Of a DNA stretch of 64,000 bases, positions 9,130 to 53,736 are shown piece by piece. The stretch comes from Dehalococcoidia bacterium. Its GTDB lineage: Bacteria > Chloroflexota > Dehalococcoidia > Lucifugimonadales > Australimonadaceae. The notes under the pieces were generated by a model, which saw only the letters and a program-made list of their open reading frames with translations, ran no database searches and was not told the origin of the DNA. Positions within the stretch are counted from its first letter, which is position 1; the number at the start of each line of letters is the position of its first letter. The position numbers were made by a program, and so were the translations under genes. Location of the stretch: the NCBI GenBank assembly GCA_965248455.1, contig OZ252105.1, positions 200,993-264,992 of the forward strand, in the 5' to 3' direction.

Positions 9130-9188
9130 TCCTTGGGAACTACAGCGGGCGTATCCTGCGCCAAGTCTGCGGCTATACTCCCGCAACC

Positions 9189-28612: not shown

Positions 28613-28780
28613 AAATCTTGACGATTGCGTATGCTCCTCGTGATAAACATGCACGGGTGTGCGGCTGACCCGTAAGGGTCATTCGTGCGTAGTGTCTTAT
28701 CCCTCAGGGAGGAAGGCGAAGAAACGCCGGTGGCTTACGTTCGAGTAGAGACGCACATGGAAAGCAACAGGGAGGATGAG

Positions 28781-32864: not shown

Positions 32865-33326
32865 ATGAGAATTACCATGAAGCTGGCGCTGGCTGCATTC
32901 GTAGTGGGGCTGGTAGCTGCGCTGGTCGGCTGGGTGTGGCTCGGCGAGGTGGGGGAACTGAAATCGCGCACGGAACGCTCGGTTGCCACCTACCAGGACG
33001 GGATGCTGATCTACACGACGCTCGCCGGAACAGAGGCCACGATTCCGGTGTGGGACGAGTGCAAGAATCTGGGCCCGCGTCCTGCGAACGAGTGCATTGC
33101 GTACTACGAGAACGGCGATGAAGTAGTCATTACGTACGATTCGGCAGAGCCCACGCACGCGTGGCGTGGCCCGACGCCTAACGGCGTGCCAGCAACCGGG
33201 TTGTTCTGGGGCGGCATCGCGCTGGGGATATTCGCGCTGTTCGGAATCTGGTTCACGTCGTCGTGGTACCGGCGACTCAGCCGCCCCACCATCGCAGGGC
33301 AGGGCGCTCCTCCTGTGGAGGATTAG
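32865..33326 (+). CDS. hypothetical membrane protein (DUF3592-like topology)
   Basis: N-terminal TM, soluble middle part, C-terminal TM (LFWGGIALGIFALFGIWF). Confidence 0.45.
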   Translation: MRITMKLALAAFVVGLVAALVGWVWLGEVGELKSRTERSVATYQDGMLIYTTLAGTEATIPVWDECKNLGPRPANECIAYYENGDEVVITYDSAEPTHAWRGPTPNGVPATGLFWGGIALGIFALFGIWFTSSWYRRLSRPTIAGQGAPPVED

Positions 33327-34984: not shown

Positions 34985-36079
34985 TTAGTGGTCAGCGACG
35001 CCTGTGTAGTCCCATTGATAGTTGACGTCGCGGTATGCCCCGTCCGGCATCCCGCACGGGATGTCGCGCTTGGCGAGCTCCTCCTCGAACATCTGCCGGA
35101 TCCACGGCTCCTCGTTCGGGTATTCGATCTGGTCTTCGGACAGATTCTGCACCTGCTCCGACATGCCCATGAACTGGTTGGGCGGATGGAGCGCGAGGTA
35201 GCGCCCGTGGGTCGCGCCCAGGTTGAAATGCTGATGGAACCAACGGTCGGGGGGAACGAAGCAACTGGCCTCGTGCCACGGCACCACGACCTTCTCCTTG
35301 CCTTCCTGCCACATGATCGAATAGCCCTCGCCGCCGGGGATGACGATGACGCGCCCCGGCCCGTGGCGGTGGCCCTTCTTGTAGGTGCCGGTAGGGAAGA
35401 CGGACATGTGCGCATGCAGCTCCGACCCCGGAATCTGCATGTAGACCGACCGGTTGACGGAGCCTCGCCCTGGCCGGTGCATCAGCTTGTCCCAGACGCC
35501 CATGTCAGGGAAGAAGTTGCCGAACCAGAGGGTGCGCCCGGCGGCCCCTTCCGCGACGTGTTCCTGTGTCGTCGCCTCGGCTTCGGAGTAGAACTCCTGG
35601 CCGCTGAGCACGTCCTCCTCGAACGGGTTGTTGAAGAAGAAGGCGGGGTTCGGAATCGCGGACATCGCGATGGGCAGGTAGTTGTAGTGCAGCAGCCGCA
35701 CCGGACGGTCGCCGTGCATATTGTTGAACTGCGCCCACGAGTTGCGGGGGATGAGGAAGAGCGAGCGCGGAGACCACTCGAACGTGTGGCGCTCGCTGCC
35801 TTCGCTGCTCCAAACGACGGTTGTGCCCTGACCGCTCAGCACGTAGACCATCTCGTCTATCGCCTGCTTGAAGGGTTTGAGCGTACCGCCGGGCGGAATC
35901 TCCTGCACGCGCCCCTCCACGACGCCGGGCATACCCTCCAGCTGGATGAACGCAGCATCGCACTCGCGGAGGCTCCATGGTCCGACTTCCACGTTGCGGA
36001 GGTCTTCGAGGTAGTAACCCCGATGCACAGGGACGCCTTGCTCATTCATCCATCGGTCGTAGGTGAAATCGTTGGCCAT
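34985..36079 (-). CDS. bicupin protein, copy 1 (unknown function)
   Basis: 364 aa with two cupin barrels. The C-terminal barrel has LHAHM, KKGHRHGPG and WFHQHFN. GGAGGAG RBS. Confidence 0.8.
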   Translation of the reverse strand: MANDFTYDRWMNEQGVPVHRGYYLEDLRNVEVGPWSLRECDAAFIQLEGMPGVVEGRVQEIPPGGTLKPFKQAIDEMVYVLSGQGTTVVWSSEGSERHTFEWSPRSLFLIPRNSWAQFNNMHGDRPVRLLHYNYLPIAMSAIPNPAFFFNNPFEEDVLSGQEFYSEAEATTQEHVAEGAAGRTLWFGNFFPDMGVWDKLMHRPGRGSVNRSVYMQIPGSELHAHMSVFPTGTYKKGHRHGPGRVIVIPGGEGYSIMWQEGKEKVVVPWHEASCFVPPDRWFHQHFNLGATHGRYLALHPPNQFMGMSEQVQNLSEDQIEYPNEEPWIRQMFEEELAKRDIPCGMPDGAYRDVNYQWDYTGVADH

Positions 36080-36205
36080 ATCTCCTCCGTGGGCCTCGAT
36101 GGTCGGCCCGGATCCCTCGCTGGTAGTGGCGTTGCGCGCGTTGCCGCCACGCCATCACCAGCATATTATGCCACTGCGGGAATCATCGGCGAGGTGACTA
36201 TAGTA

Positions 36206-37855
36206 GTGAGCAGCATATTGAACAGATCGCATAGCCCCATTTATACCACCCGAGGCATCGTTGGCTCGGCTTCTCCGCTCGCAGGAGCGGCGGGCGCGCA
36301 CGTTCTGCGCGAGGGCGGCAACGCCTTCGACGCCGCCATCGCAGTGGCCGCCGCGGAGGCCGTCACGCTTCCCATGATGTGCGGCATCGGCGGTGAAGTG
36401 TTCGCGCTTCTCTACCATGCGGCCTCCGGCAAGATATACGGCATCTCCGGCTCAGGGAAGGCTTCCCTCAGCGCGACACGCGACTATTTCGTGAGCCGGG
36501 GGTACGTGAAGATGCCGGCGGACGGTCCACTTACCCCTGCCGTGCCCGGCGAGGTACACGCCTGGCAGACGATCCTCGACAACTTCGGGTCGAGGACGCT
36601 CGCGCAGCTCATCGAGCCGGCCATCACGCTTGCGACCGATGGCTTCTCGTTGCCTCCGCGCTCGGCCAGCTACTTCACGGATCACTACACGAAGCTCTCC
36701 AAGTACCCCACGACGGCCAAGGTATTCATCAAACCGGACGGCTCGCCGTACCTGTTGGGCGACGTGTTCGCGCAGCCCGCTCTGGCTCGCTCCCTCCGCC
36801 GGGTAGCGGACGGCGGCCCGGACGAGTTCTACCGAGGCGCGCTTGGCAAGGAGATTGCGCAGGGCATCGCCGACGGCGGAGGGCTCATCGACGAGGACGA
36901 CCTTGCGCAGCACGAGACGCTCTTCTATGACGACCCGCCTTCCGTGGGCTACCACGGGCATACGGTGTACGCAACGGGCCTACCGTCCCAGGGAGCGCTG
37001 ACGCTCGAACTGTTGAGCCTTCTCGATGGGTTCGACCTCGCCGCGCTTGGCCACAACACGGCGGAGTGCATTCATACCATGGTAGAGGCGAAGCGTCTCG
37101 CGTTTGCCGACCGCCTCGCCTACATAGGCGACCCTGAATTCGTGCGCGTGCCGCTCGATGAACTGCTCTCTCCTGAATACGCCGCGCGCCGCCGGTCGCT
37201 CATCGACCCTGAACGGGCAGCGGGAAGCATCGTTCGCGCGGGCGAGCTGGCGCATTCCGTGTCGCCCTCACCGACTACGTCGTATTTCAACGTCATCGAC
37301 AGCGAGGGCAATGCCGTCTCGTTCATCCACAGCCTTTCGATGTACTTCGGTAGCGGGTTCGTTGCAGGCGACACCGGCGTTCTGCTGAACGACCGCGTGG
37401 GCCGCGGCTTCTCCCTCGAAGAAGGACACGTCAACGTCGTTGCTCCGGGGAAGAAGACGATCAACACGATTCACTCCTACATGGTGTTTCAGGACGGCAA
37501 ACCCGTGCTCGTCGGCGGTACGCCTGGCGGGGACAATCAGCCTCAGTGGAACGCGCAGGCTATCTCCAACGTCATCGATCACGGGATGGACGTGCAGCAG
37601 GCCGCCGATGCTCCGCGATGGACGCACTTCCCCGGAACGGATCCGCGCTCCATCGACCAGGAGATGGCGCTGCGGATGGAAGACGGCTTCAGCGAGGAGG
37701 TCACACGCAGCCTCGCAGCGAAAGGCCACAACGTCGCCGGCTATCCCACGGTGGGTACGCCGGGCGCGGTTCAACTCATCGCGATAGATCATGAACGGGG
37801 CGTTCGCACCGGCGGCACGGACCGCCGTTCGGACGGCTACCCCACACCGGAGTAA
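36206..37855 (+). CDS. ggt: gamma-glutamyltransferase family protein
   Basis: GIVGSASPLAGAAGAHVLREGGNAFDAAIAV and later the GGTPGGDNQPQ motif. GTG 36206 after GAGGTG. The upstream part of the 1023-aa ORF is antisense to the bicupin gene. Confidence 0.85.
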   Translation: MSSILNRSHSPIYTTRGIVGSASPLAGAAGAHVLREGGNAFDAAIAVAAAEAVTLPMMCGIGGEVFALLYHAASGKIYGISGSGKASLSATRDYFVSRGYVKMPADGPLTPAVPGEVHAWQTILDNFGSRTLAQLIEPAITLATDGFSLPPRSASYFTDHYTKLSKYPTTAKVFIKPDGSPYLLGDVFAQPALARSLRRVADGGPDEFYRGALGKEIAQGIADGGGLIDEDDLAQHETLFYDDPPSVGYHGHTVYATGLPSQGALTLELLSLLDGFDLAALGHNTAECIHTMVEAKRLAFADRLAYIGDPEFVRVPLDELLSPEYAARRRSLIDPERAAGSIVRAGELAHSVSPSPTTSYFNVIDSEGNAVSFIHSLSMYFGSGFVAGDTGVLLNDRVGRGFSLEEGHVNVVAPGKKTINTIHSYMVFQDGKPVLVGGTPGGDNQPQWNAQAISNVIDHGMDVQQAADAPRWTHFPGTDPRSIDQEMALRMEDGFSEEVTRSLAAKGHNVAGYPTVGTPGAVQLIAIDHERGVRTGGTDRRSDGYPTPE

Positions 37856-40211: not shown

Positions 40212-40805
40212 TTAACGCAGGAGCGCCTGTCCGGCTGCAACTGCGGCTTCCCATTCCGGCGTTCCGAGCAGCTCCGGGAGACCCAGCGGCTCCGCAGGAG
40301 GGAAGTTGGCGTTTCCCAGCATGTACTCCAGCCATATGACGTCTCTCCACGCTCCAAGCTTGTAGCCGACCTCGTGAAATGTGCCGATCTGCTCGAAGCC
40401 CATGGCCTCGTGTAGTCCGATGCTTGCAGGGTTCGGCTCCGTGACTCCGGCGTAGGCGCGGCGGTATCCGAGCAGGCGGAGCGTTCCCAAGAGAGCGATG
40501 TACAACGCTGTGCCGATGCCCGTGCGGTGGTGCTTCGGGTGGATATAGATGGTGGTCTCGACAGACCAGCGGTAGGCAGGGGAGACGCGGTGCGGGCTGG
40601 CGTAGGCGTAGCCGGTCACGAGGCCATCGCGCTCGCAGACGAACCATGGCAACCGATCGATTGACCTCTGGATGCGGTCGCGGAAATCAGCGCCGGTGGG
40701 AGCTGTGTAGACGAAGGTTATCGCCGTATCGCGGGCGTAAGGCTCGTAGATCGCCGCGATCTGGTCGGCGTCGTCTTCGCGAACGAGCCGGAGGGTAGTT
40801 GGCAT
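40212..40805 (-). CDS. GNAT N-acetyltransferase (phosphinothricin/YncA-like)
   Basis: IHPKHHRTGIGTALY…GLHEAMGFEQIG is the acetyl-CoA-binding region. Confidence 0.8.
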   Translation of the reverse strand: MPTTLRLVREDDADQIAAIYEPYARDTAITFVYTAPTGADFRDRIQRSIDRLPWFVCERDGLVTGYAYASPHRVSPAYRWSVETTIYIHPKHHRTGIGTALYIALLGTLRLLGYRRAYAGVTEPNPASIGLHEAMGFEQIGTFHEVGYKLGAWRDVIWLEYMLGNANFPPAEPLGLPELLGTPEWEAAVAAGQALLR

Positions 40806-40808
40806 AGC

Positions 40809-42125
40809 CTACGCATCGCGGACGGCTGCGACTCCGGCGCGGAATGCTTCGATGGTGCGCTCGATGTCCTCGTCGGTGTGGCAGACGCCGACGTACAGCT
40901 TGCCGGAGGGCTTGAAGACGCCGTGCTCCAGCAGCGTGTTGTCGAATATGCGGTTGAGCGTCTTGTCCACCAGCGTGGAGCGGTAGTCGACGATGGGTTG
41001 CTCGGTGAAGTAGACATCGAACATCACGTCGACGCCGCTCACGACCGCAGGAACCTCCGCCTCGTCGAAGAGGCGTTGGAGCGTGTTGCGGAGCCTTGCA
41101 GCGCGCTCGTGGTACGCCCCGTACGTCCCGGGTACGCTCAGGACATCCAGCGTTGCGAGGCCTGCCGCCGCCGCGACCGGGTTGCCGTTCAGCGTGCCTG
41201 TCTGCGGCACGTAGCGGTCAGCGGGCGCAGTGCGAGGGTCGTACGCTTCCAGCAGGTCGCGCCGTCCAACGACCGCTGCCAGGGGGAAGCCGCCCCCCAC
41301 GATCTTGCCGATGGCCGCGATGTCCGGCACGACGCCGTAGTGTTCCTGCGCGCCGCCGTAGGCGAGGCGGAAGCTCGTGACGACCTCGTCGAAGATGAGC
41401 AGAACGCCGTAGCGCTCCGTCAGCGTGCGCAGTCCGGCGAGGAATCCCGGCTGCGGTGCGATGACGCGCTGCACCGGCTCCACGATGACCGCCGCGAGTT
41501 CGTCGTGGTACCGGTCGAGCAGGTCCTCCACCATGTTGAGGTCGTTGAATGGCGCGACAAGCACCGTCTCCTGGACGGCCTTGGGTATGCCCGCGGAGCT
41601 CGGTTCACCGTGAGGGAACTCCGTCTTCCCGGAAGGCGACAGGCTCATCAGTGAGTAGTCGTGCATCCCGTGGAAGCCGCCCTCGAATTTGAGGATCTTC
41701 TCCCGTTTGCGGAACGAACGCGCGATCTTCAACGCGTTGTAGGTCGCCTCGGTGCCGGTGCTGACGAAGCGCACCTGCTCCGCGCACGGCATCGCTTCGA
41801 TGATGCGCTCGGCCAGTGCGATAGCGTACTCGTTCTGCGTGAAGAACGTCGTGCCCTTGGCCATCGCCGCGCTTGCGGCTTCGATGACCTTGGGGTGGGC
41901 ATGGCCAAGCACCATCGGCCCCGACCCCAGCAGATAGTCGATGTAGGAGTTGCCGCTCATGTCGCTGATGTGCGACCCGTGGCCCTCGCGTACGACGAAC
42001 GCATAATCGTCATCGAGCCGCAGGTTCCCGAGCGTACCGCCGGGCAGCGCGCGCGCCGCTCTCGCGAGCATCTCTCGTTCTTCAGGTGTCCTGTTCAAGC
42101 GTGACAAGGGGCAACTCCTCTCCAT
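40809..42125 (-). CDS. class III aminotransferase / glutamate-1-semialdehyde aminomutase-like
   Basis: LPGGTLGN…YIDYLLGSGPMVLGHAHP…FVSTGTEAT…FDEVVTSFR motifs. Start uncertain. Confidence 0.8.
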   Translation of the reverse strand: MERSCPLSRLNRTPEEREMLARAARALPGGTLGNLRLDDDYAFVVREGHGSHISDMSGNSYIDYLLGSGPMVLGHAHPKVIEAASAAMAKGTTFFTQNEYAIALAERIIEAMPCAEQVRFVSTGTEATYNALKIARSFRKREKILKFEGGFHGMHDYSLMSLSPSGKTEFPHGEPSSAGIPKAVQETVLVAPFNDLNMVEDLLDRYHDELAAVIVEPVQRVIAPQPGFLAGLRTLTERYGVLLIFDEVVTSFRLAYGGAQEHYGVVPDIAAIGKIVGGGFPLAAVVGRRDLLEAYDPRTAPADRYVPQTGTLNGNPVAAAAGLATLDVLSVPGTYGAYHERAARLRNTLQRLFDEAEVPAVVSGVDVMFDVYFTEQPIVDYRSTLVDKTLNRIFDNTLLEHGVFKPSGKLYVGVCHTDEDIERTIEAFRAGVAAVRDA

Positions 42126-42364
42126 CGTCTATCGTTGAATCGTCCGGTCGATTCTGCCATGCGCGCCGACGCGTTGCTACTGCCGGGGCGCTGTCCTCCG
42201 AACGATCAGGCGCGAGATGGGGCTGTGGCCTTCCAAGGCGCTGGCGTTGTGATAGGCTTTCGGTTGGCGTCGGTTCGTTGCCGAGGCGCGCGGCTGGCGG
42301 CAGTAGAGGTTGGGCGTGCAAACGCGCCTACCTTGAAAATCTTGTGAATACGCGGAGGGAGAGC

Positions 42365-43099
42365 ATGGCAATAAAGGAAGTTGCGGAAGTCAGCGCTGGG
42401 GGAGACCCGATGCCGGTTCATACGGCACGTCCGGATGGCGACGGGAAGAGCCCGGCAGTCATCGTGATTCAGGAGGTATTCGGCGTCAACAACCACATGA
42501 AGAGCATCGTTGATCGCTTTGCCGCCGAGGGCTACTTCGCCGCTGCGCCCGAGCTGTTCCACCGCTCCGGCGCGGGCACAGAGGTTGCGTTCACGGACAT
42601 GGAGCGCGCGTTCGCCGAGCGGGGCAAGCTGTCCATGGAGGACATCAACGCCGACGTGCAGGCGACGATAGACTACCTGCGCAGCAACCCGAACGTGGAC
42701 GCCGACAACATCGGCATCGTTGGCTTCTGCTTCGGCGGCATGGTGTCGTACCTCGGCGCGACCATGGACGGTATCAAGGCGGCAGCCGTGTACTACGGCG
42801 GAGGCATCCTGCCGCGACCGGACGCAGCGGAAGGCACGCCGCGTCTCCTCGACCAGACCGCCGACAGCGTGCAGGCGCCGATCATCGGCTTCTGGGGCGA
42901 TCAGGACGGCGGCATACCCGTCTCCAACGTCGACGCCATCGAGGCCACGTTGAAGGAGAAGGGCAAGTCCATCGAGAACCACGTCTACGAGGGCGCGGGG
43001 CACGGCTTCTTCTGCGACGAGCGCGGCAGCTACAACGAGGCCGCTTCGAACGACGCATGGCCCAAGACGCTCGCGTTCTTCGGTGCGAACCTCAAGTAA
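42365..43099 (+). CDS. dienelactone hydrolase family protein
   Basis: AVIVIQEVFGVNNHMK and GIVGFCFGG nucleophile elbow. GGAGGGAG RBS before ATG 42365. Confidence 0.85.
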   Translation: MAIKEVAEVSAGGDPMPVHTARPDGDGKSPAVIVIQEVFGVNNHMKSIVDRFAAEGYFAAAPELFHRSGAGTEVAFTDMERAFAERGKLSMEDINADVQATIDYLRSNPNVDADNIGIVGFCFGGMVSYLGATMDGIKAAAVYYGGGILPRPDAAEGTPRLLDQTADSVQAPIIGFWGDQDGGIPVSNVDAIEATLKEKGKSIENHVYEGAGHGFFCDERGSYNEAASNDAWPKTLAFFGANLK

Positions 43100-43215: not shown

Positions 43216-44736
43216 TCAACCCGACTGTGAGCGTAAGGAAAAGACGAGCGACTTGACCGTTACGGGGATAACCTCCGACGCGCCCATAGGCTTGCCGATG
43301 TCCACGTAGTCAAGGTCGCCGACCTCAATGCCGTCTATGGCGATGATAGCGCGATTGAAGTTCAACTCCTCACGGATGATGCCGCCGAGCGATTTGGCGA
43401 CGTCCACGTCAACGACGAGGAAAACGGGTGCTTCGGGCGGCTCGTCGGCGACCGTCTTGATGATCGACTCAGCAAGGCGGCGGATGTACCAGTAATCGGG
43501 TTGGCCGGCGATGGACATGGCGAGGACCATCGAGGAGGGCAGCCTGTCCATGTCGTACTTACCGACGCCTGCTGCGAGCGCGGCCTCCATCTCCTCCGCG
43601 CTTTGCTCCTTATTGATGAAGGCGCGTGCCACCTGTACGCCCCGGACGGGGAGCACGTCAGCGGTTGCGATGTAACTCGTGCTGCCGCTGGCCTGCAGCG
43701 TGTACTCGCCCGCGCCGATGACCGTAGCGCGGATGCCCTCCGCAGGGGTGATGAGCACGCCGGGCCGGAATGTTCCCATGGAGCGCTCGCGGACGATTCT
43801 GCCGAACCAAGGGCCTACGTCTCCGTACGACTCGCTCGTACGGTCGTAGACGTACTCCGAGACGCCGCCTGAATAGACGATATGGTCGATGTCGTGCAGG
43901 GACGATACGCGCAGGCCGTCGGTCAGCAGAAGGGACTCGGTAAGTGGGTCCACGTCGCCGCCGCTGATGACGTCGAACAGGATGTCGGTCATCCTGGCAA
44001 CGAATTGATCGCGCTGGGCCTCGGTCAGCTTGCCGCCGACCGCGACCTCGTGGCCGAGCGTCTTCATGATGGTGCGCGCGGGCTGTTCGACCCGCGTGAT
44101 CGTCATATCGTCGTCGTAGGCGATGAGCCGCGCGCCGATCTCGACCACCACCATCTGGGAGATCTCGCCGCCTTGGATGAGCGATATCTTGGTCGTTCCG
44201 CCGCCCATGTCTATGTCGAGCACGGAATTGGAGTGGCTCTTGGAGATGGCGACTGCGCCCGACCCGAAGGCCGCGAGGAGCGCCTCGTGCATCGGCCCTG
44301 CAGACGCGCAGATGAACCCGCCGGACTTTTCGGAGAAGTACTCCAGGATGGGCTGAGCGTTCTCCTTCTTGAGCGCCTCGCCCGTGATGACGACTGCGCC
44401 CGTATCGATGTCGCCCGGGGTGAACCCGGCCTCGCTATAGGACTCCTCGATGAACTGCTGCACGCTGTCCGTGTCGATGGCCGTGTTGGAGGAGTACGGC
44501 GTGAGCATGATGGGGGAGCGGTAGAGCACGTCACGGTTGGTGACGACGAACTTCGCCGACAGCCCCGCCCCCTCGCGCCGCAGGATGAGCCTGGAGAAGA
44601 TGGTGTGTGTGGTGGAGGAGCCTATATCAATGCCCACGCTGTGCAACGTGAACTTCTCGATTCCCTCGATGTCCTCGGCATCCTCGCTGTAGAGGAGGTC
44701 GAGGGCGTGTCCGTGATCGTGATCGTCGTCGTGCAT
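43216..44736 (-). CDS. EutA-like ASKHA-superfamily ATPase, copy 2
   Basis: 506 aa. VGIDIGSSTTH and DIDMGGGTTKI. His/Asp-rich N-terminus MHDDDHDHGHALD. Confidence 0.8.
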   Translation of the reverse strand: MHDDDHDHGHALDLLYSEDAEDIEGIEKFTLHSVGIDIGSSTTHTIFSRLILRREGAGLSAKFVVTNRDVLYRSPIMLTPYSSNTAIDTDSVQQFIEESYSEAGFTPGDIDTGAVVITGEALKKENAQPILEYFSEKSGGFICASAGPMHEALLAAFGSGAVAISKSHSNSVLDIDMGGGTTKISLIQGGEISQMVVVEIGARLIAYDDDMTITRVEQPARTIMKTLGHEVAVGGKLTEAQRDQFVARMTDILFDVISGGDVDPLTESLLLTDGLRVSSLHDIDHIVYSGGVSEYVYDRTSESYGDVGPWFGRIVRERSMGTFRPGVLITPAEGIRATVIGAGEYTLQASGSTSYIATADVLPVRGVQVARAFINKEQSAEEMEAALAAGVGKYDMDRLPSSMVLAMSIAGQPDYWYIRRLAESIIKTVADEPPEAPVFLVVDVDVAKSLGGIIREELNFNRAIIAIDGIEVGDLDYVDIGKPMGASEVIPVTVKSLVFSLRSQSG

Positions 44737-44781
44737 CCGTCAGTTATCCCTCAATGTTGATGTAGTGTCTGGCGGGGCGGG

Positions 44782-45882
44782 TCAGGCTTTCGCGGCCTCG
44801 TAGTTCCATTCGTACGCGTGGTTCTTGTAGGCCTCGTCCGGAATCTCGGAGGTCATGCCGCGCTCGGCCAGCTGACCCTCGAAGTATTCGCGTATCCACG
44901 GATCCTCGTCGGGGTACTCGATCTGGTCGCGTCCGCGGTCTTCTACCTTCTCGCTCATGCCCATGAACTGGTTGGGTGGATGGAGCGCGAGATAGCGTCC
45001 GTCCGCCTTGCCCAGGTTGAAGTGCTGATGGAACCAGCGGTCGGGCGGAACGAAGCAACTGGCCTCGCGCCAGTGGATAACGACCTTCTCCTGGCCTTCC
45101 TCCCACATGACGGAGTAGCCCTCGCCGCCGGGGATGACGATGACGCGTCCCGGGCCGTGGCGATGGCCCTTCTTATACGTTTTCGCGGGGAAGACGGACA
45201 TGTGCGCGTGCATCTCCGAGCCGGGGGATTGGATGAACACCACGTGCCCACCTGCGCCCCGTCCCCAGAAAGGCACGAGCTTGTCCCAGGCGGCCATGTC
45301 GGGGAAGAAGTTGCCGTGCCATACCTGGCGCCCGCGTCCGGCGAAAGCGCCCTCGCCCGCTTCCATGATGGCCTTTGCCTCGGAGTAGAACTCGTCGGTG
45401 CTGTGCAGGAAGCTACTCTCGGAGTAGGGGTTGTTGAAGAAGAATTCCGGGTCGGGCGTGGCGGACATCGCGATAGGCAGGTAGTTGTAATGGAGGAGCC
45501 GCGCGGGATTCTGGCCGTCCATGTTCGTGAGTTGGCAGTGCGAATTGCGCGGGATGAGGAAGAGGCTGCGCGTCGCCCACTCGAACGTCTTCTTGGGTCG
45601 TGAGTCGTCCGTCCATACGGTGGCGACGCCGCGCCCGCCGAGGACGTAGACCTGCTCGTCGACCGCGAGTTTCAGCGGCGGGAGCGTGCGGCCGGGCGGA
45701 ATCTCCTCGATGCGCCCCTCGACGACGCCTTCCATGCCTCGCAACTGCATGAACGCTGCATCGACCTGGCGGTCCTCCCACCAGCCGAGTTCAACGGTGC
45801 GCAGGTCTTCCACGTAGTAGCCCCGGTGAACGGGTATCCCCTGTGCTTCCATCCAGTCGTCATACGTGAAACGTCGTGCCAT
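44782..45882 (-). CDS. bicupin protein, copy 2
   Basis: 366 aa, collinear with 34985-36079. Same MHAHM, KKGHRHGPG and WFHQHFN motifs. Confidence 0.8.
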   Translation of the reverse strand: MARRFTYDDWMEAQGIPVHRGYYVEDLRTVELGWWEDRQVDAAFMQLRGMEGVVEGRIEEIPPGRTLPPLKLAVDEQVYVLGGRGVATVWTDDSRPKKTFEWATRSLFLIPRNSHCQLTNMDGQNPARLLHYNYLPIAMSATPDPEFFFNNPYSESSFLHSTDEFYSEAKAIMEAGEGAFAGRGRQVWHGNFFPDMAAWDKLVPFWGRGAGGHVVFIQSPGSEMHAHMSVFPAKTYKKGHRHGPGRVIVIPGGEGYSVMWEEGQEKVVIHWREASCFVPPDRWFHQHFNLGKADGRYLALHPPNQFMGMSEKVEDRGRDQIEYPDEDPWIREYFEGQLAERGMTSEIPDEAYKNHAYEWNYEAAKA

Positions 45883-46080: not shown

Positions 46081-46482
46081 TCACTTAATCTCTTTTGTCT
46101 GTGTTCCTTGCTTCGATGCCTTCCACAAACCCAGGGCCTTACTGTCATAACCAAAGGCAAGCTCCCATAGTTCAATATTCCATGGATTCCGCCATCGAGC
46201 ATCCATGCACTCTTTACGCTGAAAATGCAGGTTGCCCCCCGTGGGACGACCAGTGAATACCGTAATAGGATGTTTGTTTCCAGTGAACAATATGCCGGTT
46301 ATTTCTACGATAATGCCGGTTTCTTCCTTGGTTTCACGATAGGCAGCATGGCGACTTCTTTCATGGTGGTCAACATGACCGCCTGGCAACGCCCACTTCC
46401 CCTTCCGTGACCCATATGCCCGCTGCACAAATAGAGTTTCCCCATGGTCGTTTCCGACCAAACAAGCCGCCACCCTCGTCAT
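46081..46482 (-). CDS. NUDIX hydrolase (copy 2, divergent from copy 1)
   Basis: Nudix box GGHVDHHERSRHAAYRETKEETGI. AAGGAG RBS before ATG 46482. Visibly AT-richer than its surroundings. Confidence 0.75.
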   Translation of the reverse strand: MTRVAACLVGNDHGETLFVQRAYGSRKGKWALPGGHVDHHERSRHAAYRETKEETGIIVEITGILFTGNKHPITVFTGRPTGGNLHFQRKECMDARWRNPWNIELWELAFGYDSKALGLWKASKQGTQTKEIK

Positions 46483-46635
46483 GGTATTATCTCCTTCTGC
46501 ACCTGCGCCCGTGCCGAACAATTTATCTTCATCGCCTAACCTCAAAGCCTCGCTCGATATCGAAGATGTCATAGAAGTCTTCCGCCAAGCGCTCTCTGTA
46601 GGCTTCCTCGGGGCGGGGAGCCGCCGCCTGCGCGC

Positions 46636-47745
46636 CTAGTCGCGTATGTCCTGGAGGAACCACTCGGTGGGGAGCTCGTGGCCGAGGCCCTGAGCCTTCG
46701 CCAGCTCGTAGGCGCGGCCTGCCACGGCGAAGAACTGCGCGCCCTGGATGTTCCCGCGCTCCGAGTAGGTTACCGCGCTGTTGCTCGGCCTGCCTTCCGC
46801 GCCCTCGATCATCTCTTGCAGGAAGACGACGCGGCCCTCCGCGACGATACCGTGGGCGCGGCTGACGCGCGACCGCGATTGGTTGCTGGACGCCGGGCGT
46901 CCGCCGGGCGCGTTGGCCTCGTAGGCGATGAACTCGTCGTGCAGCGCCATCTCCGGTATGCCGACAGGGGCGGGCGCGGAGCCGAGGCGCAACGAGCGGT
47001 CTATGCGCTCCATGGCCTCTCCATCTATGCGCCCGCCGACGCAGGTGATGTGCGCGCCGTCCTCGATGTCCTTGCCGAAGATGACCGGCTCCACGGAGTC
47101 GGTGCAGCCTGCGACGATGTGCGCTCCCTTGCACGCTTCGGCGGCGCTCGTGACAGGGATGACCTCGATGCCCAGCTTCTCCTGAATCTCAGCGGCGTAC
47201 GCTTCCCGGTTGGCCTTAGTGGGGCTGAACACCTGGATGCGCTTGATGTCGCGGACGGCGGCGAACGATTCGGCGTGCGAGCGCGCCATACCGCCTGAGC
47301 CGATCATCGCGACGACCGAGGCATCCTCGCGCGCCATGTACCCCGCGCCGATGCCGGAGTCCGCGCCGACGCGCATGTGCTGCAGAAAGCCGTCGTTCAT
47401 GATCGCCAGAGGTTCGCCGTTCTCGGTGCTCATCAGGAAGATGAGGCCGCAGAAGAGGCCGGGCTGCACGCAGTACTTCTCCTCCGTGCGTACGCCCTCG
47501 TACTCCTGTTCGTACACCACGTCGGACTTCATGCGAATGGCGAAGTAGCCGGATGCGGAGCCTCCCTCCATCGTGCCCCACTGGTACATCTTGTTCGGGT
47601 CGGACGTGGGGATGCGCAGATCGATGCGCGGCCTGCAGACCGCCTCAGTGCGCGCGAGCTCCTCATAGGCGCGCTTCAGCGAGTCGATGGTGTCCTGCAT
47701 CGTGAGGACGGCTGCGACGTTGTCGTTGTTCAGGATGAGCGTCAT
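46636..47745 (-). CDS. ornithine cyclodeaminase / mu-crystallin family protein
   Basis: MTLILNNDNVAAVLTMQDTIDSLKRAYEELA N-terminus and MIGSGGMARSH Rossmann motif. ATG 47745 overlaps the protease stop (ATGA). Confidence 0.8.
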   Translation of the reverse strand: MTLILNNDNVAAVLTMQDTIDSLKRAYEELARTEAVCRPRIDLRIPTSDPNKMYQWGTMEGGSASGYFAIRMKSDVVYEQEYEGVRTEEKYCVQPGLFCGLIFLMSTENGEPLAIMNDGFLQHMRVGADSGIGAGYMAREDASVVAMIGSGGMARSHAESFAAVRDIKRIQVFSPTKANREAYAAEIQEKLGIEVIPVTSAAEACKGAHIVAGCTDSVEPVIFGKDIEDGAHITCVGGRIDGEAMERIDRSLRLGSAPAPVGIPEMALHDEFIAYEANAPGGRPASSNQSRSRVSRAHGIVAEGRVVFLQEMIEGAEGRPSNSAVTYSERGNIQGAQFFAVAGRAYELAKAQGLGHELPTEWFLQDIRD

Positions 47746-48206
47746 GGGGTAGGCTCCTGTCGTGGGTAGGACTCGAAAGTAACGCGGCCGGTAACGCCGT
47801 TGTAAGTCATGGTGAAGCGCCGGAGAATGTCCCTGCCAATGATGGCATAGTAGGGCAGGCCCCCACTTGTCAGATGAACGCCTGCGAATTGGCCGTTGAT
47901 CGTGAAGTCGAAATGGGGGATATGAACCTGCGCTAGGTGCATGTTCATCGCGGCTGGGCCATGAATCCCAGTTATGACCTGGTGATCCACTACGGGAAGG
48001 CGCAGGTTGTCGGCAAGGCTTGTGTCGATGCAACTTTCTGAGGCGCCCGTATCGATGAGAGCGGGGAACTGGTCAGACCCAAGGTTAGGCTGGTTGCCGC
48101 TGTCAGGGTCGTAAGAAGTGTCAAGGCCAATTCGGACAGCCAGTGTTGGCCCTATGCTCACCAGCATGTCCGGCTGCCCGTCGAATCCGCAGTCGGCAAC
48201 TGGCAT
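47742..48206 (-). CDS. retropepsin-like aspartic protease, copy 2
   Basis: ALIDTGASESCI (DTGA) and IIGRDILRRF. The ATG overlaps the upstream stop by 1 nt. Confidence 0.7.
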   Translation of the reverse strand: MPVADCGFDGQPDMLVSIGPTLAVRIGLDTSYDPDSGNQPNLGSDQFPALIDTGASESCIDTSLADNLRLPVVDHQVITGIHGPAAMNMHLAQVHIPHFDFTINGQFAGVHLTSGGLPYYAIIGRDILRRFTMTYNGVTGRVTFESYPRQEPTP

Positions 48207-48502
48207 CAGTGAATCCCGAAAACGAGGGACGGAGGCAACTGCAACGGCCCTTTCCCTACTTTGCGAATGAGGTACGGCCCGCGACCGAAGCGGCGCATCG
48301 CCACCCGGGCCGCATCCTCAAATGCCGGATAGGTTCCGATGAGTTCCCCGTCACGCACGATGACCCACTCGCCGAAGTGGTCGGTTTCCAGCAAGTCCTG
48401 CATCCGCTCGTAGGCGGCAATCTCTTCACTCAACTTGGCCATGGCGTCCCCCGCCGGTTGTTCGCCAACCTCATGGGTAGATTGCTGCCTATTAGCGCGC
48501 AT
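48206..48502 (-). CDS. small partner protein (DUF5678-like), copy 2
   Basis: …DHFGEWVIVRDGELIGTYPAFEDAARVAMRRF… aligns with copy 1. Start is either 48502 (overlapping the Rieske stop) or ATG 48442. Confidence 0.5.
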   Translation of the reverse strand: MRANRQQSTHEVGEQPAGDAMAKLSEEIAAYERMQDLLETDHFGEWVIVRDGELIGTYPAFEDAARVAMRRFGRGPYLIRKVGKGPLQLPPSLVFGIH

Positions 48503-49785
48503 CAGCCTTTTGCTGCTGCAGCCTCGCGTCTGTCCAGGATGGGGCTGTACATCGTGGCGGCACCCTGGCGAGAGGACGTGTCCACGTAGTTGTGCTGCTC
48601 CGTCATGAACGGGATGTAGGCGTTCTGCTCAGCGTCTCGGTAGACCTCCATGGGGTCTCCGCCGTCCTCGACGATGCGGATGTTGTCCTCCAGCATCTGC
48701 CGGAACATGATGATGCCCTTGTCGGAGCGTCCCAGATGCTCGCCGGTGCGGTCCGCGATATCGCCCTGCGTGATCCACGCAGCGGGGTCTTGCGAGGAAT
48801 TGCTGCGCAATTCCGGGTAGACCGGCTGACCATTCACGTCCAGCATGGGAACGGGCGGGCGGTAGAAGGGAATCTCCTCCGCTGTCTGTTCCTCGTCGCC
48901 TGCGACCATCGGGTAGCACGCCACCCACCAGTGGCCGGTCGTGTAGTCGTCGATGGGGGTGCGAATCTGGAACGCGGGGCCCATCGAGAAGCTGCCCCGG
49001 TACGTGCCGTCGGTGATGTTGAAGCCGTCGCCGCCCTGGCGCAGGTAGTTCGGGAAGATGATGGGGTGCCCATCCTTCCATTCGGTGTCTTCCTCGGAGC
49101 CGCCTTCCCAGATACGGCGCTTGATGATGCCGTGCTCGAACGCGTCGAAGTGGATGACCTTGTGAGGGCGGCGCGTACGCCGATCCTCATCGCCGTTCAT
49201 CTCTCGGATGAAGTTTGCCCACGCGACGTGCAGCCATTCGAGGTGTACGGGGTCGAGCGAGTTCTCCTGGCACTGCAGCCAGTTGCACGACAGTTCAGCG
49301 TAGCCGATGTCGCGCAGGACGCCGGTTGCGGAGAAGACATCGTAGTTGGGGATGAGCGGCACGGGCGTGGGGCCCATGTAGGCGAACACCAACCCAGCCT
49401 TCACCTCCACCGGGTACGCCTTCATCTTGATCTTGTCCTTGAACCGCGCCTCCGGGTCCTCCGTCTCCTCGTACGGCTGCTCGATGCACTGCCCCGTCTC
49501 GTCGTACAGCCATCCGTGATACGGACAGCGCAGACCATGCTCCTCCGGTATGCCGTAGATCACGTTCATGCGCCGGTGAGCGCAGTGCGGCTCCATGAGG
49601 CCGAATGTGCCGGAGCGATCCTTGTACAGGATGAGATCCTCGCCCAGGAGGCGCACCTTCATCGTCCACTTGTCGTTCATCTGCGAAACGGCGGCGATGG
49701 GGTGCCAGTAGCGGCGCATCAGCTCGCCCATCGGCGTGCCGGGGCCGACTCGGGTATAGCGGTCGTTAGCTTCCTGTGTCAGCAT
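48502..49785 (-). CDS. Rieske oxygenase alpha subunit, paralog 4 (intermediate subfamily)
   Basis: CAHRR...CPYHGW and NSLDPVHLEWLH. AAGGAGAG RBS. Confidence 0.9.
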   Translation of the reverse strand: MLTQEANDRYTRVGPGTPMGELMRRYWHPIAAVSQMNDKWTMKVRLLGEDLILYKDRSGTFGLMEPHCAHRRMNVIYGIPEEHGLRCPYHGWLYDETGQCIEQPYEETEDPEARFKDKIKMKAYPVEVKAGLVFAYMGPTPVPLIPNYDVFSATGVLRDIGYAELSCNWLQCQENSLDPVHLEWLHVAWANFIREMNGDEDRRTRRPHKVIHFDAFEHGIIKRRIWEGGSEEDTEWKDGHPIIFPNYLRQGGDGFNITDGTYRGSFSMGPAFQIRTPIDDYTTGHWWVACYPMVAGDEEQTAEEIPFYRPPVPMLDVNGQPVYPELRSNSSQDPAAWITQGDIADRTGEHLGRSDKGIIMFRQMLEDNIRIVEDGGDPMEVYRDAEQNAYIPFMTEQHNYVDTSSRQGAATMYSPILDRREAAAAKG

Positions 49786-49852: not shown

Positions 49853-51130
49853 CTATGCTCCCTGTGCTGCCCCCGCGGTGCGGGGTATGCTGCGCAGGCC
49901 TTCCCAGCTTTCCAACGTCTCATCCACGAGCGAGGCGACTGTTGGCTCGCCGGCCTCGACGAGCGTGTAGCCGAAGCGGCGGCGATTGCCGAACTTCACG
50001 TGCTCCAGCGGCAGGTGGATGGCCTCGTTCGTCGCAGGGTCGCGGAACGTGTTCATGGGGTCGCCCCCGTCCGCGACGAGTTGCGCCTGCTCCTGAAGGA
50101 GCTTGCGGAAGAGGATGATGCCCTTGTCCGACTCACCAAGATGTTCGAGGTTGCGCTTGGCGACGGGGCCCTGCGTTATCCACGCGAGGTAATCCTGGTT
50201 GAAGAGGATGTCGCTGATGTAGCGCCCCTCGTCGTTCTTGAGCGGGATGTAGCGGTAGGGGACGACGTCCTGACGCGGCGCCTGCGACCCAGGTGCGGGC
50301 CGCCAGGCGTAATAGGAGACGTGGTAGGTGTGCGTGTCGTCCGCGGGCACACGGAACTGGAAGGTGGAGCGTACCTCGTCCCCGACGAGCAGGATGTTGG
50401 GGAACATGATGGGGTGCCCCTCTGACCAGTCGTCGTCTTCCTCCGTGTAGCCTGCCTCGACGCGGCGCTTGATGATGCCGTGCTCGAAGACGTCGAATCC
50501 GATCTTCAGATGCGTGCCTCGCAGTTCAGGCAGTGCGTGGACGCCGTTGCGCTGCACGTTGGTGTAGTAGGCGTGGAGCCACTCGTTGTGAACCGGGTCG
50601 AGCGAGTTCTCCTGGCACTGCAGCCAGTTGCACGGGAGCTCCGATATGCAGACCTCCCGCACGGCGTTGTCCCAGGTCAGCTGCTCCCAACGCGGCAGCA
50701 GCGGCGCAGGCTGCGGACCCATGTATGCGAAGACGAGGCCTCCCAATTCCTGCACCGGGTAGCCCGCGATCTTCACCTTCTCCTTGAAACGTCCGTCCGG
50801 GTGCACCGTCTCCTCGAACGGCTGCTCTATGCACTGGCCGGTCTCGTCCATCATCCAGCCGTGGTACATGCAGCGCAGGCCGTGCTCCTCCGGTATGCCG
50901 TAGGTGAGATCGACCCTGCGATGCGGGCAGGCGCGCTCGATGAGTCCGAGCGTACCGGACTTGTCGCGATAGAGAACGAGATCTTCGTTGAGCAGGCGCA
51001 CTGGCTTGGTGGGGCGCTCGTTGAGTTCAGCGGTAGCGGCGATGGGATGCCAGTAGCGGCGCATCAGTTCGCCCATAGGCGTACCCTGACCTACTTTCGT
51101 AAGGTCTTCGTTGGCTTTGACGCTAAGCAT
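49853..51130 (-). CDS. Rieske oxygenase alpha subunit, paralog 5 (subfamily B)
   Basis: CPHRR...CMYHGW and NSLDPVHNEWLH. GGGAG RBS. Confidence 0.9.
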   Translation of the reverse strand: MLSVKANEDLTKVGQGTPMGELMRRYWHPIAATAELNERPTKPVRLLNEDLVLYRDKSGTLGLIERACPHRRVDLTYGIPEEHGLRCMYHGWMMDETGQCIEQPFEETVHPDGRFKEKVKIAGYPVQELGGLVFAYMGPQPAPLLPRWEQLTWDNAVREVCISELPCNWLQCQENSLDPVHNEWLHAYYTNVQRNGVHALPELRGTHLKIGFDVFEHGIIKRRVEAGYTEEDDDWSEGHPIMFPNILLVGDEVRSTFQFRVPADDTHTYHVSYYAWRPAPGSQAPRQDVVPYRYIPLKNDEGRYISDILFNQDYLAWITQGPVAKRNLEHLGESDKGIILFRKLLQEQAQLVADGGDPMNTFRDPATNEAIHLPLEHVKFGNRRRFGYTLVEAGEPTVASLVDETLESWEGLRSIPRTAGAAQGA

Positions 51131-52111: not shown

Positions 52112-52495
52112 GTGTACGACATGGCCACCTACAGCATAAGAGAATTCAAAACCAGAGTCAGCGGCATACTCAGGAACCTCGACAATGGCGAAGAAGTGAT
52201 CATCACCCGCCGCGGGGAACCGTGCGCTAGGCTCATGCCTGTCCAGCGTTCCATTGGGGGAAGGCCTTCACTCGGCACACTCAGGGGAGCCTTGGCCAAC
52301 CTGCCGGACGCGAGTTACGAGGACTTCCAGAAATCTACCAGCTCGATCCCCACTTCCTGTAATCGAGACAGAGACCGCCACGAGGGCGGTCTCCACTCTA
52401 CCGGCGAAACGTCAGGGATAGCGCCATACGAACGCGCCCGCACTATCGGCCCAGCGTGGCCTCCACGCCGAGGTAGTCTACCCAGGTGCGCATGA
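52112..52495 (+). CDS. orphan Phd/YefM-type antitoxin; only the N-terminal 70-80 aa look genuine
   Basis: MATYSIREFKTRVSGILRNLDNGEEVIITRRGEPCARLMPV. The ORF then runs through a hairpin and 53 nt into the 3' end of Rieske paralog 6. No toxin gene follows. Confidence 0.4.
   Translation: MYDMATYSIREFKTRVSGILRNLDNGEEVIITRRGEPCARLMPVQRSIGGRPSLGTLRGALANLPDASYEDFQKSTSSIPTSCNRDRDRHEGGLHSTGETSGIAPYERARTIGPAWPPRRGSLPRCA
52369..52393. other. conserved GC hairpin downstream of Rieske paralog 6
   Basis: cagagaccgcc acgag ggcggtctc. The same sequence occurs at 58500-58525. Confidence 0.6.
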
Positions 52496-53711
52496 CCTCC
52501 TCGATGTCGGTTACGGCGGTGGTGTCGCCCGCCTCAGGCGGGATGTAGCGTGCCTGCGCCCGCATGCCGAACTTGACCTTCTCCACAGGGGCGTGGAGCA
52601 GCTGATCAGGGTCGTTGCGGAAGACGTTCATCGGGTCGCCGCCGTCCTGGGCGATGGCGATGTTACGCTGCAACTGCTTACGGAACAGGATGATGCCGAC
52701 GTCCGACGCGCCGAGCTTCTCCTTCTCGCGCTTGGCGATCGGACCCTGAGTCGCCCACGCCATGTAGTCCTGGTTGAACGTCCAGTCGACGATGAAGCGG
52801 CCCTCGTCGTCCTTGAGGGGGACGTAGCGGTAGGGCACGGTCTCCTGTCGCGGGGCGGCTGCGCCGGGAGCGGCGCGGTAGTTGTAGATCGACACATGCA
52901 GCGTGTTGGAGTCGTCGACGGGTACGCGGAACTGGAAGGTGGCGCGCGCCTCGTTGCCCACGAGCAGGATGTTGGGGAAGAGGACGGGGTGCCCCTCGGC
53001 CCACTCGTCGTCGGTTTCGTCCTTCCCGAACAACAGGCGGCGCTTGATGATGCCGAACTCGAATTCGTCGAACCCGATATTCATATGCTTCCGGGATGAA
53101 CCCTGTTGGGAAACGGCGATGCGATCCGTGTTGCGGTACGCGCCCATGTACGCGTGAAGCCATTCGACGTGAACCGGGTCGAGCGAATTCTCCTGGCATT
53201 GCAGCCAGTTGCAGGGGATCGTCGTGATCGCGATGTCGCGGACGGCGTTATCCCACAGCAGGTGCTCCCAGCGCGGCAGCAAGGGGGTGGGCTGCGGGCC
53301 CATGTAGGCGAAAACAAGCCCTGCCATCTCCTGCACGGGGTAGCCCGCGATCTTCACCTTCTCCTTGAAGCGTCCGTCCGGGTGAACGGTCTCCTCGAAC
53401 GGCTGCTCGATACACTGGCCGGTCTCGTCCATCATCCAGCCGTGGTACATGCAGCGCAGACCGTGCTCCTCCGGTATGCCGTAGGAGAGATCGACGCGGC
53501 GATGCGGGCAGGCGCGCTCGATGAGTCCGAGCGTACCGGACTTGTCGCGATAGAGCACCAGGTCCTCGCCCATGAGTCGCACGGCCTTGGTGGGGCGTTC
53601 GTCGAGCTCGGCGGTAGCGGCGATGGGATGCCAGTAGCGGCGCATCAGATCGCCCATCGGCGTACCGGGGCCGACCTGTGTGAGTTCTGCGTTCTCCTGG
53701 GTGCTCAACAT
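52443..53711 (-). CDS. Rieske oxygenase alpha subunit, paralog 6 (subfamily B)
   Basis: CPHRR...CMYHGW and NSLDPVHVEWLH. GGAGGGA RBS before ATG 53711. Confidence 0.9.
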   Translation of the reverse strand: MLSTQENAELTQVGPGTPMGDLMRRYWHPIAATAELDERPTKAVRLMGEDLVLYRDKSGTLGLIERACPHRRVDLSYGIPEEHGLRCMYHGWMMDETGQCIEQPFEETVHPDGRFKEKVKIAGYPVQEMAGLVFAYMGPQPTPLLPRWEHLLWDNAVRDIAITTIPCNWLQCQENSLDPVHVEWLHAYMGAYRNTDRIAVSQQGSSRKHMNIGFDEFEFGIIKRRLLFGKDETDDEWAEGHPVLFPNILLVGNEARATFQFRVPVDDSNTLHVSIYNYRAAPGAAAPRQETVPYRYVPLKDDEGRFIVDWTFNQDYMAWATQGPIAKREKEKLGASDVGIILFRKQLQRNIAIAQDGGDPMNVFRNDPDQLLHAPVEKVKFGMRAQARYIPPEAGDTTAVTDIEEVMRTWVDYLGVEATLGR

Positions 53712-53736
53712 GGACTGATCCCTCCACACGTGCAGA

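Follow-up and report, generated by a model that had tools for sequence, protein, structure and literature searches.

A stretch of 64,000 nt from contig OZ252105.1 of a Dehalococcoidia bacterium (GenBank assembly GCA_965248455.1, positions 200,993 to 264,992; the whole stretch is called the window below) carries two copies of a gene pair that encodes a bicupin and an ATPase of the EutA family. Both ATPases begin with an acidic, His-rich N-terminal tail, and we propose here that they may act as ATP-driven accessory factors for the metal center of the bicupin. The following features make up the two copies, all of them on the minus strand.

44782-45882, minus strand: bicupin of copy 2, the proposed client metalloprotein (366 aa; from the open reading frame (ORF) and its translation)
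43216-44736, minus strand: EutA-like ASKHA ATPase of copy 2 (506 aa, starting with MHDDDHDHGHALD)
44650-44736, minus strand: N-terminal tail of the copy 2 ATPase, residues 1-29 (MHDDDHDHGH, a variable linker and the acidic motif EDIEGIEK; from the translation)
44980-45204, minus strand: predicted metal site of copy 2, the His cluster of the C-terminal cupin (H227, H240-R-H242, H285-Q-H287-F-N289, R296-Y297 and H301)
34985-36079, minus strand: bicupin of copy 1 (364 aa)
33323-34885, minus strand: EutA-like ATPase of copy 1 (520 aa, starting with MHDEPWAHAHDPDEE)
34760-34885, minus strand: N-terminal tail of the copy 1 ATPase, residues 1-42 (MHDEPWAHAHDPDEE...NNPDHDYYHHE; from the translation)

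An earlier note on this DNA had described both pairs, and their positions, their translations and the 45-nt gap that separates bicupin from ATPase in copy 2 were found as it gave them. It had also regarded the two copies as old paralogs instead of a recent duplication. The bicupins are 65% and the ATPases 37% identical between the copies. A tree built from 100 family bicupins places each window bicupin with its own orthologs from other Dehalococcoidia metagenome-assembled genomes (MAGs); those of copy 1 are found at loci L014-L017, L025, L068 and L071. The duplication is therefore indeed old. Dehalococcoidia MAGs are also the closest genome matches of the window, at 91-92% identity. Upstream of the copy 2 ATPase, an in-frame stop precedes the ATG by 3 nt, and both copies have a purine-rich stretch upstream that resembles a ribosome-binding site. 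Each copy is a co-transcribed two-gene cassette that is anciently conserved.

The AlphaFold2 model of the copy 2 bicupin (predicted local distance difference test, pLDDT, 91) displays two β-barrels. The bicupin proteins have only faint Pfam Cupin_2 matches, no NCBIfam model matches copy 2, and copy 1 reaches 20.7 bits on AminoSalDhMabB (5-aminosalicylate dioxygenase) against a cutoff of 650. A sequence search of the PDB with the bicupin retrieved no close relative, with 3bu7 (gentisate 1,2-dioxygenase) matching the C-terminal barrel at E 0.046. Foldseek returned MncA, OxdC and vicilins (E ~1e-14, template modeling (TM) score ~0.47), which are generic matches. No match to an equivalog model or structure of the gentisate 1,2-dioxygenase family was thus significant. 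The Foldseek matches of both protein models were generic bicupin and ASKHA ones and allowed no transfer of function. The family comprises 2557 database relatives (clusters at 90% identity), which are ~60% identical between phyla and are nearly all unnamed or called 'cupin domain-containing'.

Only the C-terminal barrel has canonical cupin ligands: motif 1 supplies H240-R-H242 but lacks the customary Glu, and motif 2 supplies H285-x3-N289; the N-terminal barrel has no HxH. The His-cluster columns are invariant in alignments of 15 and 63 sequences, and H227, H240, H242, H285, R296 and Y297 are also kept in ~33% identical partners from rhizobia and metagenomes. The predicted site is thus a His-only one, HxH...H with H227 as a fourth invariant His. 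His-only cupin sites typically belong to Fe(II) dioxygenases, for example gentisate 1,2-dioxygenase, the thiol dioxygenases and Dke1. The bicupin is most likely a non-heme Fe(II)/Ni/Mn-type, oxygenase-like enzyme.

The linkage of the two genes was surveyed in a census of 98 family bicupins in 80 genome loci. An ATPase gene lies directly beside 43 of the 98 on the same strand, in the order bicupin-ATPase in 34 cases and ATPase-bicupin in nine. The other 55, more than half of the sample, have no adjacent ATPase; these unpaired bicupins either work without the ATPase or are served in trans. Pairing follows the clades of the bicupin tree. A single weak position (F5) separates paired from unpaired bicupins, and the metal ligands are the same in both sets. 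The gap from the bicupin stop to the ATPase start has a median of 49 nt (31 loci), and start and stop codons of the cassette genes overlap at loci L098 and L100. Arrangements with a bicupin on both sides of the ATPase, either adjacent or with the second one further away, also occur. Because the ATPase stands beside ~45% of the bicupins, and sometimes only one is present per two or three of them, its distribution fits that of an accessory factor.

The linkage is kept from MAGs of Chloroflexota, Binatia and 'delta' lineages to cultured Alphaproteobacteria, in which the bicupin is 33% identical and the pair is annotated as 'hypothetical protein' and 'EutA'. Nine distant ATPase representatives were looked up. 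Six have a cupin of ~350-420 aa adjacent or in the same operon, and the other three are on contigs of 2.4-5.5 kb. All partner cupins with available DNA score 223-309 bits on the family profile. Cultured carriers are Phyllobacterium zundukense, Sinorhizobium terangae, Ensifer adhaerens, Brucella anthropi and Amycolatopsis acidiphila. A literature search of the accessible library for a link between EutA homologs and cupins found nothing relevant; matches for EutA and cupin concern ectoine 'Eut' genes or EutQ. In one database protein, P0276 (606 aa), part of the C-terminal bicupin barrel (profile positions 233-310, E 6e-22) is fused to an EutA-like core. It is the sole candidate for a natural bicupin-ATPase fusion and is probably an assembly or gene-calling artefact, although a rare fusion is conceivable.

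The two proteins might also be subunits of one enzyme or consecutive enzymes, with the ASKHA protein phosphorylating or activating a substrate that the cupin then converts, and with the tail binding a catalytic or structural metal. The ASKHA superfamily does contain many kinases and ATP-dependent enzymes of the hydantoinase type, weak Pfam matches of the ATPases to Hydantoinase_A and BcrAD_BadFG point the same way, and some loci show translational coupling. An obligatory partner would not be expected to be missing beside 55 of 98 bicupins or to be flanked by two of them, however. The nearest homologs of the ATPase are by far the EutA reactivases and not kinases, and flanking pathway genes are not conserved. 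We consider such a catalytic partnership improbable.

An EutA-family ATPase with a His/Asp-rich N-terminus

Pfam EutA (PF06277) matches both window ATPases over the full model (E 1e-123 for copy 2 and 9e-127 for copy 1), and the identity with E. coli EutA is 33% over the whole core. The ASKHA phosphate-1 (DxG), phosphate-2 (DxGGGT) and adenosine (SGG) motifs are intact and shared with E. coli EutA, and the corresponding columns D37/G39/T42, D176/G178-G180/T181 and S289-G291 are invariant. The AlphaFold2 model of the copy 2 ATPase (pLDDT 83) shows the two-lobed ASKHA fold with residues 1-25 disordered. Its Foldseek matches are HgdC, Ppx/GppA, PilM, actin and EutJ, and the sequence search of the PDB yielded no usable relative and no EutA structure.

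Public annotation by the Prokaryotic Genome Annotation Pipeline (PGAP) and the Joint Genome Institute (JGI) names the homologs EutA. According to this naming, the ATPase would be an ordinary EutA that reactivates a B12-dependent ethanolamine ammonia-lyase encoded elsewhere, and the strong PF06277 match agrees with it. Several lines of evidence contradict it. The ATPases fall far short of the cutoffs of all four NCBIfam EutA equivalog models (at best 360 bits against 598, with the other three at 229-275 against 769-952). No eutB or eutC was detected by phmmer with the E. coli EutB and EutC queries in the window or in 87 related loci. The conserved linkage of these ATPases is to bicupins, whereas eutA adjoins eutBC in the controls, i.e. 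E. coli, C. difficile, Haladaptatus and Halalkalicoccus. In these four canonical EutA proteins, 8-12 residues, none of them His, precede the first ATPase motif; its sequence is GIDIGTTTTQ, against GIDIGSSTT/SH in the window proteins. Core positions S40, A121, A156, K183 and Q348 split 142 non-canonical representatives from the four canonical EutA proteins (K183, for example, is N in the latter). Each of 138 family representatives at 50% identity is closer to copy 1 than E. coli EutA is. On these grounds, the window ATPases are members of the EutA family and not the known EutA, and we give the annotated function next to no credence.

Nearest to canonical EutA in the family tree is a basal clade of tail-less EutA-like proteins (P0334, P0317, P0370 and P0349; loci L093 and L094), whose short contigs carry neither eutBC nor a cupin. 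Its neighbors look archaeal (a helix-turn-helix protein of the HVO_0163 type and DUF7559), and this clade may serve a third kind of client.

The PF06277 model starts only at residue 30 or 38 of the window ATPases, so the tails are extra to the family core. Among 119 close homologs of copy 2, 108 start with Met-His (MHDD in 68, MHDE in 23, MHDG in seven, MHGD in four, MHED in three, and MHDV, MHEE and LHED as three others; 103 fit M-H-[D/E/G]-[D/E]), followed by further His within an acidic stretch; about half of the remaining 11 are miscalled starts with an internal MHD. His makes up 8.5% of the tail and 1.9% of the rest of the protein in this sample, a 4.5-fold enrichment, and Asp plus Glu 33% and 13%, respectively. 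The His/Asp-rich start that the earlier note saw in both ATPases thus exceeds chance. Re-anchoring gave 98 distinct tails, with M1 and H2 in all 98, D3 in 92% and Asp or Glu at position 3 in 94. Positions 4-6 are Asp or Glu, positions 7-10 are 25-50% His and positions 11-14 are nearly random, while a motif E-[DE]-I-E-G-[IL]-E-x-F-T-L is conserved just ahead of β-strand 1.

The tail extends across phyla. Nearly all bicupin-adjacent ATPases of the genome loci (~40 MAG loci from Dehalococcoidia, Binatia and "Deltaproteobacteria") start with MH[DE], and the tail type of copy 1 is kept in its orthologs at the seven loci named above. In a proteobacterial and actinobacterial clade (rhizobial, betaproteobacterial and Amycolatopsis sequences), 86 of 120 start with MHD, typically as MHDxDxxHEHE, which is carried by the cultured Phyllobacterium, Sinorhizobium, Ensifer, Brucella and Amycolatopsis. 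A further 22 of this clade start with MPH or VPH. Methionine aminopeptidase removes Met before Pro, and in MPHD variants this removal would again place His second from the free amine.

A tail without function, i.e. a GAC/CAC-rich, low-complexity leader in a GC-rich genome or a miscalled start, could likewise be disordered in the model and highly variable in its middle part. The in-frame stop just upstream of the copy 2 ATG speaks against a miscalled start, as do several orthologs that offer no other start between the preceding stop and the ATG. M1, H2, D3 and the HEHE block are kept between phyla of differing GC content, and the MPHD variants would keep His in second place. It is very unlikely that the tail is such noise.

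A proposed role at the cupin metal center

In canonical EutA, ATP drives the replacement of a damaged cofactor in ethanolamine ammonia-lyase. By analogy, the ATPases described here may be ATP-driven metallochaperones or reactivases for the cupin metal center, a reading to which we assign a probability of roughly 0.45. This branch of the EutA family would have been retargeted from ethanolamine ammonia-lyase to a cupin. Hydrolysis of ATP would open the bicupin client, into which the ATPase would then insert a metal ion or in which it would exchange one. The disordered N-terminus would be the metal-holding arm, with the free α-amine and His2 of Met-His-Asp as its first ligands and the HxH-rich acidic stretch behind them. 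In this scheme we infer that ATPase and bicupin interact physically, that the tail binds metal and in which direction the metal is transferred, as well as what the metal and the substrate are.

Two outcomes named in the earlier note as refuting its idea did not materialize, since orthologs across phyla have the tail and the canonical EutA proteins encoded beside eutBC lack it. The tail is frequent in cupin-associated EutA-like proteins, and all four His-rich representatives that were looked up are cupin-linked. Among the 138 family representatives, 69 have tails with at least 3 His, some with 10-13 His in HxHxH repeats. The proposed tie between tail and cupin linkage was borne out to this extent and not as a universal rule. 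Several observations weigh against metal delivery by the ATPase. No His occurs in the tail of 37 of the 138 representatives, and these His-free tails are scattered through the family tree, in addition to the basal tail-less clade. Two of five tail-less representatives looked up, P0250 and P0251, are cupin-linked and adjoin family bicupins with the same His ligands; no cupin is present on the 2.4-5.5 kb contigs of the other three. Since tail-less EutA-like proteins pair with family bicupins that keep their His ligands, the tail is not essential to the partnership; it is an add-on. The idea that bicupin partners of tail-less ATPases have lost the His ligands was accordingly rejected. Furthermore, the majority of bicupins lack an ATPase gene next to them, and none of the metal-transport or metal-regulator genes is consistently near the pairs among 106 neighboring ORFs. 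Acidic His-rich disordered tails can also serve docking, autoinhibition or solubility.

A rival reading is an ATPase that acts as reactivase or chaperone of the bicupin without carrying metal. It would use ATP to free the bicupin of a tightly bound inhibitor, a dead-end product or an oxidized form, and the tail would have a docking or regulatory role. EutA, DdrAB and Rubisco activase release a tightly bound inhibitor or damaged cofactor at the expense of ATP, and such cofactor or inhibitor exchange is the established function of the EutA family. The accessory-like distribution of the module and the pairing of tail-less members with the same bicupins fit this explanation, and the motif E-[DE]-I-E-G-[IL]-E, acidic and without His, could be a docking motif. 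It leaves unexplained, however, the invariant His2 beside the free N-terminus and the HxH and HxHxH repeats with up to 13 His, which are hallmarks of metal-binding tails. We therefore regard metal-independent reactivation as unlikely, albeit less so than a catalytic partnership.

Metallochaperone or reactivase activity at the cupin metal center would have consequences beyond the window. The EutA-family branch in question accounts for most of ~788 clusters at 50% identity that are annotated as 'ethanolamine ammonia-lyase reactivating factor'. As a whole it might constitute a new class of metallochaperone or metallocenter-repair ATPases on an actin/Hsp70-like scaffold, using a HypA-like arm to load or exchange the metal of a dedicated His-site bicupin; this broader claim is more tentative than the one for the window proteins. 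What would be new is that an EutA-family accessory ATPase serves a different client and bears an arm like that of metallochaperones. To our knowledge, the logic of cofactor-exchange reactivases is known only for B12 enzymes, and it would then extend to simple metal centers. NTP-driven metallochaperones usually have a G3E GTPase or MinD-type scaffold, and an ASKHA-fold member would join this short list as a new scaffold class. The highly conserved bicupin family, with more than 2500 clusters at 90% identity, would gain its first functional handle. This family is abundant in Dehalococcoidia/SAR202-like bacteria, Binatia and some rhizobia, and is present in multiple copies in uncultured lineages, which dominate the turnover of carbon in the deep ocean and in soil. 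A systematic misannotation would be corrected as well, namely that of genes called 'EutA' in genomes that show no ethanolamine lyase. The cultured carriers make the idea of metal delivery directly testable.

Genes around the cassettes

The earlier note had taken the different contexts of the two copies as a sign of a self-contained module, which the census corroborates. A third conserved cassette gene was sought and none was found: 106 ORFs around paired modules fall into 81 Pfam families with at most six occurrences each. This neighbor census is approximate, as the greedy ORF caller miscalled genes in GC-rich loci. The neighbors include GGT, NMT1-type binding protein, TctA, dienelactone hydrolase, aminotransferase, Rieske oxygenases and luciferase-like monooxygenases. 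In the window, copy 1 is neighbored by GGT (36152-37855, plus strand) and copy 2 by a dienelactone hydrolase (42086-43099, plus strand), a class-III aminotransferase (40809-42125, minus strand) and a GNAT protein (40212-40805, minus strand), all as previously described. The 'decarboxylase-like' genes also reported near copy 1 could not be confirmed, as the ORFs 27143-28495, 28685-30139 and 32865-33326 (all plus strand) have no Pfam or NCBIfam match. These three ORFs have a coding-like codon composition and lie on either side of a TctA-like gene (685 aa) downstream of copy 1; the last of them (153 aa) is syntenic in loci L014-L017 and L025.

Four paralogous genes for Rieske [2Fe-2S] plus LigXa_C-type oxygenases lie on the minus strand of the window (20097-21374, 48502-49785, 49853-51130 and 52443-53729), and the last three are located shortly upstream of copy 2. 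Members of this oxygenase family also occur beside family bicupins in other MAGs (loci L007, L037 and L045). Some unpaired bicupins are found among Rieske/LigXa_C oxygenases, solute-binding proteins and a LigB-type dioxygenase. The Rieske/LigXa_C oxygenases are common near unpaired bicupins, yet they are no fixed partner of the bicupin-ATPase pair.

Between an ornithine-cyclodeaminase-like gene and bicupin copy 2 lies a NUDIX hydrolase gene (46081-46572, minus strand; Pfam E 6e-17). Its third-codon-position GC content is 0.49, against ~0.85 in its neighbors, at a local GC content of ~0.5, and it may be a recent insertion. A 154-aa ORF (47742-48206, minus strand) overlaps the 5' extension of the cyclodeaminase ORF and has matches above threshold to Pfam families of retroviral-type aspartyl proteases (Asp_protease_2, 28.5 bits, cutoff 24.3).

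Other genomes place the cassette in different surroundings. In Binatia and 'Deltaproteobacteria' MAGs, it directly follows the F1Fo ATP synthase genes atpF-H-A-G-D-C on the same strand, often as bicupin-ATPase-bicupin (L044 34-9790, and also L028, L034, L059, L060 and L074). Such a housekeeping location is odd for an enzyme presumed to be catabolic. Several distant cassettes lie beside an ATP-binding cassette (ABC) importer made up of a permease of ~580-610 aa with two fused domains, a binding protein of the SBP_bac_6 family and an ATPase with ABC_tran+TOBE_2 domains (L098 980-7483, the JGI 3300056388 contig and L091 1-30). We take this importer to resemble Fbp-type iron transporters. Locus L098 also has a cation-efflux gene of the CDF family, and the importer and this gene might point to a connection with metal supply. 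In Phyllobacterium zundukense, a YjbE-family gene for a 'putative metal transport protein', presumably of the TerC type, is located two genes downstream of the cassette (L089 12802-13443), which is surrounded by two TctABC transporter sets, a thiamine pyrophosphate enzyme and a class II aldolase. At locus L004, an ATPase-bicupin pair is immediately followed, on the opposite strand, by a gene for an ArsR/SmtB-type (HTH_5) regulator (9144-9473), and a flavin reductase gene lies upstream of the pair.

Comparison with known systems

The bicupins resemble the gentisate and salicylate 1,2-dioxygenases, i.e. 3-His bicupins such as PDB 3bu7, in their length of ~360 aa and in an HxH...H site without the motif-1 Glu, and some of their relatives are encoded near Rieske oxygenases, a LigB-type dioxygenase and an FAA hydrolase. 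They differ from these enzymes in that no family match is significant, the structural similarity is generic (TM score ~0.47) and the window bicupins have their ligands in the C-terminal barrel only. That a non-heme iron oxygenase can have its own accessory protein, encoded next to it and rescuing its metal center, is known from XylT, a small [2Fe-2S] ferredoxin that reactivates catechol 2,3-dioxygenase as a reductant. XylT is no ATPase, however, and has no homology to the window ATPases.

Remodeling of a client for the release or transfer of a cofactor is carried out by other ASKHA-type ATPases, namely the diol and glycerol dehydratase reactivases DdrAB and GdrAB and the Hsp70 HscA, which takes part in Fe-S transfer. 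They share the ASKHA-type ATPase with the window proteins and belong to other families with other clients, and we know of none among them with a metal-binding N-terminal tail. Disordered terminal stretches rich in His and Asp/Glu occur in HypB, UreE, CooJ and SlyD. The tails of the ATPase family are similarly disordered and acidic, with up to 13 His in HxHxH repeats. HypB, UreE, CooJ and SlyD are G3E GTPases, small chaperones or peptidyl-prolyl isomerases for Ni enzymes, whereas here an actin/Hsp70-like ATPase is combined with a cupin client.

The resemblance to metallochaperone tails, which the earlier note had proposed, is sharpened by the invariant N-terminal Met-His-Asp/Glu, which matches the MHE motif of HypA. 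In HypA, this strictly N-terminal MHE binds Ni(II) through the α-amine, the His2 side chain and backbone amides, and H2A or Leu-insertion mutants lose function (PMC7055735). The likeness of the Met-His-acidic N-terminus is one of sequence alone: the window ATPases have no Pfam or NCBIfam match to HypA, nor its fold or its Zn (CxxC)2 site, and the motif is carried by an ASKHA ATPase without a separate HypB NTPase.

EutA (PF06277) itself is of the same family, with the same ASKHA fold and nucleotide motifs at 33% identity to the E. coli protein. The window ATPases differ from it by the lack of an eutBC partner, scores below the equivalog cutoffs, the extra His/Asp tail of 30-40 residues, the differing signature residues and the bicupin neighbor. 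Their logic is probably that of EutA, an ATP-driven accessory factor for one client enzyme.

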